Source: Nitrospinales bacterium
GTDB taxonomy: Bacteria > Nitrospinota > Nitrospinia > Nitrospinales > VA-1
Direction: 5' to 3'
Length of the DNA: 64,000 nucleotides
Assembly: GCA_965262115.1 (NCBI GenBank)
Contig: OZ253496.1
Coordinates: 2,016,001-2,080,000, forward strand
Under the pieces are notes generated by a model. It was not told the origin of the DNA. It ran no database searches and saw only the letters and a list, made by a program, of their open reading frames with translations. Positions 17,361 to 20,451 of this stretch are shown here, piece after piece. Within the stretch, counting starts at the first letter, position 1. Each line of letters begins with the position of its first letter. A program made the translations under genes and the position numbers.

Positions 17361-18263
17361 ATGAATCAAAATATTGTTTCCTGCGGTCATAAAATTGATA
17401 TCGGAACTCGTGTGGTTTTATGGAACGAAGGCTTTGTTTGCCCCAACAAGCGAGGCCGGTCTGCCTGTTCCCATCACGACCCCGTGCTCAATGACGCACC
17501 ATCCAGAAAAGATTCGGCCTATAAAATCCTGAAACCCGAATCGGCTTACAAAGAACTGGTGCAACACGTTCACCAGTTTGTTCTGCATTACGATGCCTGC
17601 TACAGTTCCTACCACTGCCACCAAGTGATGACGGAAAGTTCTTTTAAGGGTAGCCATTTCTATCTTGATCTCGATGGCACCATTTACCAGACCTGTGACT
17701 TGTACTGGAAAACCAATACTGCACCTGCCGATGACCGGCAAGGCAACGAAAGGGCAATCCATGTCGAGATGGCAAATCTTTCATGGGAAGCTTTGGCTAA
17801 AGAATCTGAATGGCTCCCTTCCAGACAGGATAAGTACCGAAAAAAAAGAGGTCAGTGGGTGCTGGAACTGCCCAATGACTACCGCAGAAAAATCCGCACA
17901 GCCGGATTCCAGGCCAACCCATCACGAACTTACGGCACAAGGGGATACTTCAGCAAAAAGATCAATGGCCGAGTGGTCCGCATGTGGGATTTTACCGAGC
18001 AACAGTATCAAGCTCTGATCAAGCTCTGTATCGGCATCAACCAAATTCTACCCAGGATTAAACTGCAAGTGCCATTCGACAAAAGTTCCGGCCGACACCC
18101 TCTCGACAGATTAAAAAACTACTCTAAATTTTCCGGTATCCTGGGCCATGCTCATGTGCAAAAGGGCGTAAACGGACTGGAGTGCAAGCACGATCCCGGA
18201 TCAGCCTTCAACTGGGCCCGGTTAAAAAAAGCCTTCGACTCAGCGGAGAACCTCCGCAGGTAA
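17361..18263 (+). CDS. N-acetylmuramoyl-L-alanine amidase (Amidase_2-like)
   Basis: VLHYD, SHFYLDLDGTIYQ, HVEM, FTEQQYQAL, GHAH...KHDPG.AFNW. Confidence 0.8.
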   Translation: MNQNIVSCGHKIDIGTRVVLWNEGFVCPNKRGRSACSHHDPVLNDAPSRKDSAYKILKPESAYKELVQHVHQFVLHYDACYSSYHCHQVMTESSFKGSHFYLDLDGTIYQTCDLYWKTNTAPADDRQGNERAIHVEMANLSWEALAKESEWLPSRQDKYRKKRGQWVLELPNDYRRKIRTAGFQANPSRTYGTRGYFSKKINGRVVRMWDFTEQQYQALIKLCIGINQILPRIKLQVPFDKSSGRHPLDRLKNYSKFSGILGHAHVQKGVNGLECKHDPGSAFNWARLKKAFDSAENLRR

Positions 18264-18344
18264 CCAGCAATAGCTCCTAAAGCCAAGAGATCGACTGCTA
18301 GCAGTACGTGATATTCTTCCTAAACATTCAGGGGTAAAAAGCTA

Positions 18345-18455
18345 TTTACCCCTTGGGCTTTTAAGCCCGTCCCGAAGCGCAGATCGTTGTGTCCTGTTTT
18401 GATTAACCCGAACAGTTGCCTGGGCCACTGAGCCCGCATCGGCAAGGCTGGGAGA
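18345..18455 (+). ncRNA. IS110 bridge RNA (target- and donor-binding loops), 5' part apparently missing
   Basis: TTTACCCCT-hairpin(GGGCTTTTAAGCCC)-GT-CCCGAAG, then ACAGTTGCC-hairpin(GGGC..GCCC)-GGCAAG-GCTGG. Guides match the flanking target and the element right end. Confidence 0.75.
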
Positions 18456-19420
18456 CCAAATTATGAATCAGAAACCCCATTTTATTGGCATCGATATTTC
18501 TAAACTCCATCTGGATGTTGCTGACAGCATGACTCAAGAAACCTGGCAAACCGCTAACAATGAAGAAGGGATTGCTGGTTTGGTCGAGAGTTTATCCGCC
18601 TTAAATCCTCCATTGATCGTTTTGGAAGCCACAGGCGGCTTAGAGATCCCGTTGGCTTCGGCCCTGGTTGCGGGTCGACTGCCAGTAGCCGTGGTCAACC
18701 CACGGCAAGTTCGTGATTTTGCCAAAGCCACCGGGAAACTGGCAAAAACCGATGTCATTGATTCTCTTGTGCTGGCCCATTTTGCCAGGGCCGTACGTCC
18801 TGAGGTCAGGAAAATCAAAGACGAAGAATCTCTTGAACTCTCAGCTCTAGTGACACGCCGTCGCCAGTTGATCGAGATGCTGACCAAAGAAAAAACCCGT
18901 CTAAAACAAGCTCCAAAATGGATATGTAAAGACATTAAGGAGCATATCGAATCTCTTAAAAAACGCTTGCGAAAAATCGATGGCGACCTTTCCAGAACCA
19001 TCAAAAACAGTTCTGCCTGGCGTGAGCACGACCAGATCATACAAAGTGTTCCCGGTGCCGGTCCCGTTCTGGCTGTCAACCTCTTGGCCGGGGTTTCGGA
19101 ACTTGGAGTTCTTAATCAGAAGCAAATCGCCGCCCTCATCGGTCTCGCTCCCCTCAATCGGGACAGCGGAAAGTTCGGTGTATCCGGGGCGGCCGCGCCA
19201 ATGTGCGTGCCGCTTTATACATGGCCGCCGTCACTGCCATGCAGCATAATCCCGTGATTCGTACCTTTTACACACGCCTCATCGAAAAGGGCAAACCCTT
19301 TAAAGTTGCCATTACCGCATGCATGAGAAAGTTATTAACGATCATCAATACCATGATCAAAACAAAAACACTCTGGAATGAAAATCTCATTGCCAGCACT
19401 TGACATTTAACACAGTTGCT
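18352..19420 (+). mobile_element. IS110-family (IS621-like) element, defective
   Basis: CT core at both junctions (18352-18353, 19419-19420); TTGACA -35 box at 19400-19405; flanks rejoin to TACCCCTTCGGGGCATGAAG. Confidence 0.82.
18463..19403 (+). pseudogene. IS110 DEDD recombinase, frameshifted
   Basis: IGIDISK, LEATGG, KTDVID, SVPGAG, GLAP..RDSG; frameshift near 19175; C-terminus RAALYMAA...ACMRKLL in another frame. Confidence 0.92.
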
Positions 19421-19454
19421 TCGGGGCATGAAGACAAATGAAGAGGACATCACA

Positions 19455-19794
19455 AAGATAACTGCCGCCTTTTTTAATATGTCCCGCTCCATACGAAGGC
19501 GAGCGTTTTCTCGCCGCAACTGCTGCAACTCATCTCCCGGCTTAAGCTGTCCTTTGCCGGGAAACGCATTCCCCTGATCCTCCTCATACTCCTGTTTCCA
19601 GCGACCCAGAAGGGCAGAACGGATTCCCAGATCCCGGGACACCCGGGCAATGCTATCGCCTACTTCAATAACCAATCGAACCGCTTCTAACTTGAATTCT
19701 TTACTGAAACTCCTGCGTTTGGTTCCCATAAAAACACCTCCAAAAGTGTATTATCCACACTTTTCGATGTGTCCACCAATTCAGGGGAAGATCA
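19455..19794 (-). mobile_element. IS3-family remnant (left end plus orfA, truncated)
   Basis: orfA RRSFSKEFKLEAVRL...LRRENARLRMERDILKKAA; left end TGATCTTCCCCTGAATTGGTGGACAC; no orfB. Confidence 0.85.
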
Positions 19795-20093: not shown

Positions 20094-20169
20094 ATCCGGG
20101 GCTATGCATCGGTCACGTAATCCGCAAATTTTTCAACTTAGCAAAGGCTTCAGATTCCGTGATCAATTT

Positions 20170-20451
20170 AGCCCCATCATCCCGCCATTGATGTCCTGGA
20201 ACAGTGTCAGCCATCTGATGAAGGAACACTATGGTTTAGCCATGAAGTTCAAGGATATTCTTGCGACTTATAAATCGGCCGAAGACCTGATTAATATCGG
20301 GGCTTACACCCGCGGCAGTAATCCAAAAATTGATCAGGCTATTCAAAAATACGAACTTATGATTCCCTACCTCAAGCAGGGAATTGTAGAAAGTGTTGAC
20401 TGGCGAACCAGTATGAATGAATTGAAAAAAATTCTGGAGGATGAATCTTGA
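20170..20451 (+). pseudogene. fliI: 3' remnant of flagellar export ATPase FliI
   Basis: HPAIDVL/NSVS.LM (frameshifted), then ATYKSAEDLINIGAY.RGSNPKIDQAI; most of the gene is absent. Confidence 0.82.

Follow-up and report, generated by a model that had tools for sequence, protein, structure and literature searches.

The stretch at 18345–19454 of the window (the whole stretch of DNA that was analysed, 64,000 nucleotides) is very probably a copy, 5′-truncated and frameshifted, of an IS110 element resembling IS621; the guides of the element match the hairpin end of a 41-bp host repeat, and intact sister copies would insert into that repeat by way of these guides.

Element copies, recombinase and insertion sites

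The ends of the element were located in the 2.68-Mb genome with BLAST and anchored searches, which yielded 26 right and 26 left ends. Full copies comprise 1196–1197 bases between two CT cores. Fifteen copies carry an intact gene for a 316-aa protein, seven (including the window copy) share the same 10-base deletion, two represent an 88 %-identical subtype with stops, and the others are fragments; repair of the frameshift, which the original prediction had called for, is unnecessary with 15 intact genes in the genome. The ATG is placed at base 230–231 of the 1196–1197 and the stop codon 15 bases before the right core. With its long left non-coding end, its short right end and no long sub-terminal inverted repeats, the element was assigned to the IS110 (IS621) group. 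It does not fall into the IS1111 group (seekRNA), defined in the available part of PMC11208160 by a long RNA-bearing right end and sub-terminal inverted repeats of 7–17 bp, since the RNA lies upstream of the gene and the right end is short.

The recombinase gene of the window copy (18463–19403, forward strand) is broken by the 10-base deletion after position 19175 and gives a product of 264 aa, which was identified as an IS110 recombinase (PF01548, PF02371). Residues D11, E55, D97, D100, and S235 of the intact copies align to the catalytic residues of IS621 (ISCro4 was likewise aligned); the window copy keeps the catalytic residues and loses the C terminus. The closest named protein relatives are from Nitrospinaceae (65–73 % identity).

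Right ends lie inside the 41-bp repeat, at TACCC-CT-NCGGG, in 25 of the 26 cases, so that unrelated targets are not the rule among the other copies. The right flanks (n=26) read CT-TCGGG (23), CT-GCGGG (2), or CT-CGGGG (1), and the left flanks (n=26) end in TACCC (22), TACCCC (2), or GACCCC (1), the remaining one being an internal duplication. The predicted target TACCC-CT-TCGGG is borne out by these ends and by guides that track the flanks in 28 pairs from relatives (see below). Of 24 paired copies, 23 have CT at each end. The repeat embedded in an IS3-family element was found empty seven times and filled six times, the filled cases having both IS3 flanks, and comparison of these filled and empty alleles revealed the duplication of CT alone, as expected of the proposed core. 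For two filled sites the orthologous empty repeat in relatives carries T.

Several copies depart from the usual arrangement. The sole copy outside the repeat (genome positions 1212814–1214010, L105) has a fully matched right guide and CCC only as left target, and the DNA surrounding it is missing at the corresponding place in three relatives. At 2144617–2144781 (L006, L110) a tandem duplicate of the left end's first 164 bases is joined at CT to a full copy; this duplicate comprises the 5′ stem-loop together with a complete target loop, without the donor loop, and only its donor-right side is canonical. The copy at 2518289–2519440 (L005) has its 5′ left end folded back into a long inverted repeat, and other DNA replaces the recombinase gene between the ends. 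An inverted local duplication at 128262 and 132042 has one repeat copy empty and the other filled with the element.

TACCCCT (18347–18353) and the tail at 19421–19454 (forward strand; target right half TCGGG plus the rest of the right part of the repeat, identified by end and flank comparison as the copy inside the IS3-family element) add up to exactly 41 bases. The pattern TACCCCT-N-CGGG occurs 139 times in the genome and was found in 28 of 61 related genomes (20 of the 22 of the same genus), with reversed controls near zero; TACCCCTTCGGG was counted 28 times against 0.24 expected, followed in 28/28 cases by the GCA of the repeat. All four loop bases occur among 144 empty repeats (A 46, G 36, C 33, T 29). 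Turnover of the repeat is fast, 34 of 66 sites in the relative G019 being without a counterpart in this genome. Copies of the repeat are nested within one another, with two hot spots lying behind TACCCCTNC and GGGGCATGAAG, and the repeat also enters other hairpin repeats without duplication. A reversed copy with nine hairpin bases deleted is located in the host DNA at 18307–18336 (reverse strand); it is intact in G019. On the other side, 19455–19794 (reverse strand, PF01527) is the orfA half of the IS3-family element, the orfB half of which is absent at the locus. This element is present here and at 16 other places, and every copy found has the 41-bp repeat near the orfA/orfB boundary; 17 orfB-side and 15 orfA-side junctions were found, the halves being reassorted among the IS110 copies. 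Farther along, at 20104–20451, the flagellar ATPase gene fliI is represented by its C-terminal part only; a search of the genome with TIGR01026 gave no N-terminal part.

Bridge RNA and guide assignment

The left end of intact copies folds into a 5′ stem-loop, a target-binding loop, and a donor-binding loop (z=−4.48); in the target loop, TTTACCCCT and CCCGAAG surround the inner hairpin and form weak pairs or none. In the window, where all features of the RNA are on the forward strand, the left target guide TTTACCCCT (TTTACCC+CT, 18345–18353) was identified by copy comparison and also forms the junction to host DNA. It is followed by the inner hairpin of the target loop (18355–18368; fold and covariation), the right target guide CCCGAAG (18371–18377), complementary to CT-TCGGG and assigned from the guide–flank match, the putative handshake bases CG (18378–18379), which fit donor positions 7 (C:G) and 6 (G:T wobble), and the right strand of the stem closing the target loop (18380–18394; fold), the partner strand of which is deleted in the window copy. 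The left donor guide ACAGTTGC(C), in the segment ACAGTTGCC (18412–18420), copies the right end of the element, and the two vary together, ACGGTTG variants occurring in guide and end at once. After the inner hairpin of the donor loop (18422–18435; fold and covariation) comes a split right donor guide (18438–18446), in which AT (18438–18439) and CAAG (18443–18446) are separated by 3 nt and are complementary to CT-TGTAT of intact copies, and then the donor-loop handshake bases GC (18447–18448), the first of which fits target position 7, as assigned with the aid of relatives.

The left half of the donor, ACAGTTG, together with the CT core (19412–19420, forward strand), is the right end of the element according to end comparison; the true left end starts CT-TGTATG, so that the full donor is ACAGTTG-CT-TGTAT. 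The original prediction had given ACAGTTG-CT-TG, the left half of which stands; the right half has to be replaced by TGTAT, read by the split guide AT…CAAG, with the GC behind it as a handshake pair. All of the segments that it had quoted, including GGCAAGGCTGG (18441–18451), TTGACA (19400–19405), and the tail, were found in their places. Its guide layout and its analogy with IS621 and REPs agree with the fold, the covariation, and the catalytic alignment, and intact copies carry the guides in the two internal loops.

A covariance model was built from 13 close relatives, which share the consensus and show changes on both sides in 7 of 29 pairs; with this model, 77 of 79 additional loci proved to have the RNA upstream of the gene. 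Two-sided changes were recorded in 19/29 pairs over 58 distinct rows, in an alignment fitted to the model. Rfam, searched at the gathering threshold, gave 0 matches in the window. For the guide–flank test both ends were placed in 44 of the 77 rows, which gave 28 distinct guide pairs; the other 33 rows, in which an end could not be located, were left out. The left guide matched the four core-proximal flank bases at a mean of 3.25/4 (shuffled 1.73) and the right guide matched its flank at 4.39/5 (shuffled 1.57); in each case 0 of 10,000 shuffles of the 28 pairs were as good. The rows are kin rather than independent, and the training set included a sequence identical to one of the pairs (L007), so that this result is a strong pattern and not a formal probability. 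In 44 of 51 rows the donor-loop handshake base suits target position 7, a number matched by 0 of 10,000 shuffles (mean 32.6), and the target-loop handshake base is complementary at donor position 7 in 47/51 rows, a figure that lends weak support since that base is near-invariant. The idea that the T or G following the left guide tracks the loop base of the target was discarded, as C targets occur in relatives with either of these bases. The circle (donor) junction did not appear in the contigs of four runs, which is uninformative; one backward joint was found, with the sequence between the ends undefined and off the cores.

In the window alone the 9-mer at 18345–18353 doubles as the junction to host DNA, and it could be taken for a mere left flank that matches a guide by chance or through an assembly artefact. 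This is extremely improbable: the 9-mer is internal in 24 of 25 copies with a target loop, its position covaries with the flanks across relatives, and the junction is present in independent contigs. The internal location and the cross-species covariation already refute the chance or artefact reading. The guide assignment likewise stands whichever of the readings of the spread discussed below holds, since it rests on the cross-species test.

By analogy with IS621, as described in the available parts of PMC11208160, PMC11208158, and PMC13626964, the joined ends of intact copies would form a promoter, TTGACA-17-TATGTT, in which the −35 box (19400–19405, forward strand) would have TATGTT as its partner, 17 bases away across the circle junction; this promoter is predicted from sequence only. 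Bridge RNA would be made from the left end, its target loop would pair with TTTACCC-CT and CT-TCGGG, and its donor loop would pair with ACAGTTG-C and CT-TGTAT. The top strand would be cut directly 3′ of CT, a position within the loop of the repeat's 4-bp hairpin, and insertion would destroy this hairpin. Expression of the RNA, its binding by the protein, and recombination directed by it would be expected of the element on the same analogy.

The window copy and the spread among repeats

In the 24 other target-loop copies the 9-mer TTTACCCCT sits 113–114 bases inside the element, with the true left end upstream of it. In the window copy host DNA ending in GCTATT runs directly into the 9-mer and the first 121–122 bases of the left end are missing, so the copy on which the original prediction was based is 5′-truncated as well as frameshifted. 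The bases are lacking because the host DNA abuts on the left target guide of the element itself, and 18345–18353 is consequently both guide and flank. The loss includes the donor right half, −10 box, 5′ stem-loop, and left strand of the target-loop stem; the deletion falls between 11-base direct repeats, TTTACCCCTTG being common to the left junction and the guide. In the truncated RNA the normal fold was not obtained, and the left target guide folds back on the host sequence AGGGGTAAA (18307–18336). A promoter scan of 18100–19500 gave two sites against 1.4 expected, neither positioned to drive the truncated RNA. The window copy is predicted to be non-autonomous, since it is 5′-truncated and frameshifted. 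Truncation at the left guide was absent at all four loci examined in relatives (L066, L030, L014, L025).

Unitigs of three of four runs, from two studies, span the truncation junction without differences at about single-copy depth (about one-eighteenth of the depth of the element), reaching 28–30 bases beyond it, which is slightly below the 31-base bridging rule. An assembly error is disfavoured, as the junction is present in contigs of three of the four runs and of both studies.

In G019, G013, and G007 the DNA that follows the left-hand gene corresponds to DNA near 1,297,300 in this genome, to the right of another copy, and on its right the window copy is flanked by the orfA half of the IS3 element, a locus other than that of the left flank. 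The two flanks do rejoin into the 41 letters of the repeat, as had been predicted; they are not the halves of one original site, coming from two loci, and rejoin only because all repeats begin alike. Two further flank swaps of the same type were found in the genome. To judge by its flanks from two different loci, the window copy is a product of rearrangement between copies. Its most likely origin is a joining of host DNA and element at the left target guide of the latter, and the deletion may have been made by slippage, by host recombination, or by the recombinase.

Twelve classes of right tail can be distinguished at the 26 ends, compared with 17 of left flank, and several right tails recur in copies at unrelated loci but not in empty repeats. 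As read from these tails, the copies are not independent target choices. Part of the spread is likely to have brought with it the right junction of a parent copy, together with some flank; the shared right tails are suggestive only of one-ended transfer or conversion. A right flank of 229 bp is syntenic with relatives at one copy; at genome position 1931072 it ends in a second repeat copy, after which local DNA resumes. Six filled sites have a matching empty repeat in G019 or G013. Two of these are clean insertions at T and four differ in loop base and tail; orthology is looser there, because one flank is altered in three of the four. With the loop base of the relative differing at 4/6 filled sites, the loop-base match within the genome may be inherited rather than chosen. 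The first control set contained 0/8 differing empty sites (p=0.015), and the addition of G013 brought one exception. Under relaxed orthology the loop base then differs at 4/6 filled versus 1/9 empty sites (two-sided Fisher test, p=0.09) and under strict orthology, with six chance non-repeat matches removed from 13 rows, at 1/3 filled versus 1/7 empty sites (p=1.0). The sites covered were 76 pattern sites of G019, 100 of G013, and 2 of G007, from partial stretches.

Several readings of this spread were weighed. Insertion may have been canonical throughout, the tails, flank swaps, and window deletion having arisen later through host homologous recombination, gene conversion, and slippage among identical copies of 1.2 kb; this comes close to an even chance. 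The neighbours in G019 are split at IS copies here at no fewer than three breakpoints (at least three), the 10-base deletion and the IS3 flanks are reassorted among copies, and the window deletion lies between 11-base direct repeats. Against this, orthologous empty sites should then fit the right guide, and only 2/6 do. Such later recombination is compatible with the best explanation, of which it would replace the last step only. It is possible, if on the unlikely side, that only a new left junction was made at the recipient TACCC-CT, that the old right junction was copied along, and that the exchange was closed by homology in the repeat tail, the loop T being largely inherited. The tails missing from empty repeats, the 17 left against 12 right classes, and the 229 bp carried to 1931072 as far as the second repeat are consistent with such one-ended spread, as is site 189714, where the relative matches 24 of 25 upstream bases but has loop base G and a different tail; transfer beginning with the left junction is described in vitro in the available part of a preprint (10.1101/2025.10.25.684509). 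The numbers are small, however, with p=0.09 at best and an exception gained with G013; two sites show clean canonical insertion, and the fast turnover leaves 34 of the 66 G019 sites unmatched.

A distinctly improbable reading is that, after a few guided insertions, a hypothetical mover of the 41-bp repeat (or the IS3 element) carried the repeat with the IS110 element inside. At 120376 a compound of repeat and IS is cleanly inserted where G019 has no repeat, the same compound recurs at 736446 while no empty copy of it exists in the genome, and both IS3 flanks are found at six copies; left unexplained are the 229-bp case, the copy outside the repeat, and the switching of tails within the repeat. 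The one-ended reading can be extended to a homing-like spread in which the left junction alone, with any loop base, would be made by the recombinase and the repeat tail would complete the copy, dragging along up to 229 bp and reshuffling the chromosome, while the left-guide DNA would act as a decoy junction and the window copy would be a product of recombination at its own guide; this combination is quite unlikely. Should one-ended transfer be true, it would provide in vivo evidence on how IS110 copies complete insertion, and guide inference from flanks would overcount independent choices of the right target.

Retargeted relatives and comparison with known systems

The two copies of the 88 %-identical subtype have the right guide CCCGCAG and the flank CT-GCGGG, a matched change of one base; they share the 229 bp of right flank and are counted as one event for this reason. 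Relatives of the same genus have right guides CCCGGAG or CCTGGAG, suited to the C version of the repeat; the single flank of G013 carries T and is matched by two wobble pairs only. Relatives from other genera have different guides and are inserted in different repeats. One target is the palindrome CCCCC-T-MACCCCC, with 4–6 exact empty matches in G052 and G027 and none in five other genomes, and another is the repeat TGTCA-N2-CTGAGC, which is likewise present where a genome lacks those guides. In a distant multi-copy relative (L032–L039), L034 and L035 share a right flank unmatched by their right guide and differ in their left flanks, possibly the same carry-over of flank. The series spans three small repeats and the T, G, and C versions of one of them, a ready set for the rules of mismatches and target hairpins, and the element would be a recently active and well-documented bridge recombinase, its activity being predicted, with a long, fully matched right guide of 7 bases.

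A literature search for the element and for one-ended IS110 spread completed in a repeat returned no report, and the supplementary data of PMC11208160 contained no match to the element in the parts covered; the element may be included in published datasets. The following comparison draws on the available parts of the works cited. With IS621 and ISCro4 (PMC11208160, PMC11208158; PDB 8wt6, 9t56) the element shares the DEDD+Ser recombinase over nearly its full length (E values 1.5e-30 and 2.4e-33), a long left and a short right end, the CT core, the order of guides, the handshake bases, a predicted junction promoter, and a host repeat as target. The handshake bases and their fit to the opposite substrate were defined for IS621 (PMC11208158), where the right donor guide is split in the same pattern. 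It differs from both in its other guides, in the donor left half ACAGTTG, in its length of 316 aa, and in being known from its sequence alone; the target here is a mobile 41-bp repeat, whereas that of IS621 is the E. coli REP.

Direct transfer, reactions at a half match, target stem-loops, and flank-extended elements are the subject of recent IS110 preprints (10.1101/2025.10.25.684509, 10.64898/2026.08.31.748434, 10.64898/2026.08.14.744561, 10.64898/2026.03.19.712850). In these routes a single junction can react alone, and natural 3′ extensions homologous to the flank are reported; in the parts of these texts that were available, no case was found of completion by homology in the target repeat or of truncation at an element's own left target guide. 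ISPpu9, ISPpu10, ISPa11, and ISRm19 are REP-targeting IS110 elements (PMC1525189; 10.64898/2026.03.19.712850). Like ISPpu9 and ISPpu10, the copies described here interrupt a palindromic repeat of the host at a single position and duplicate 2 bp, and, as with the REP-targeting elements in general, they mark rearrangement boundaries and the stem-loop of the target may add to specificity. In contrast to those elements, the cut here would fall in the loop of a 4-bp hairpin, within bases matched by the guides, and the loop base varies among the repeats, with guides of relatives that read T, G, or C. The principle of repeat-targeting IS110 elements has long been known from IS621, ISPpu9, ISPpu10, ISPa11, and ISRm19, and the element itself is a further member.
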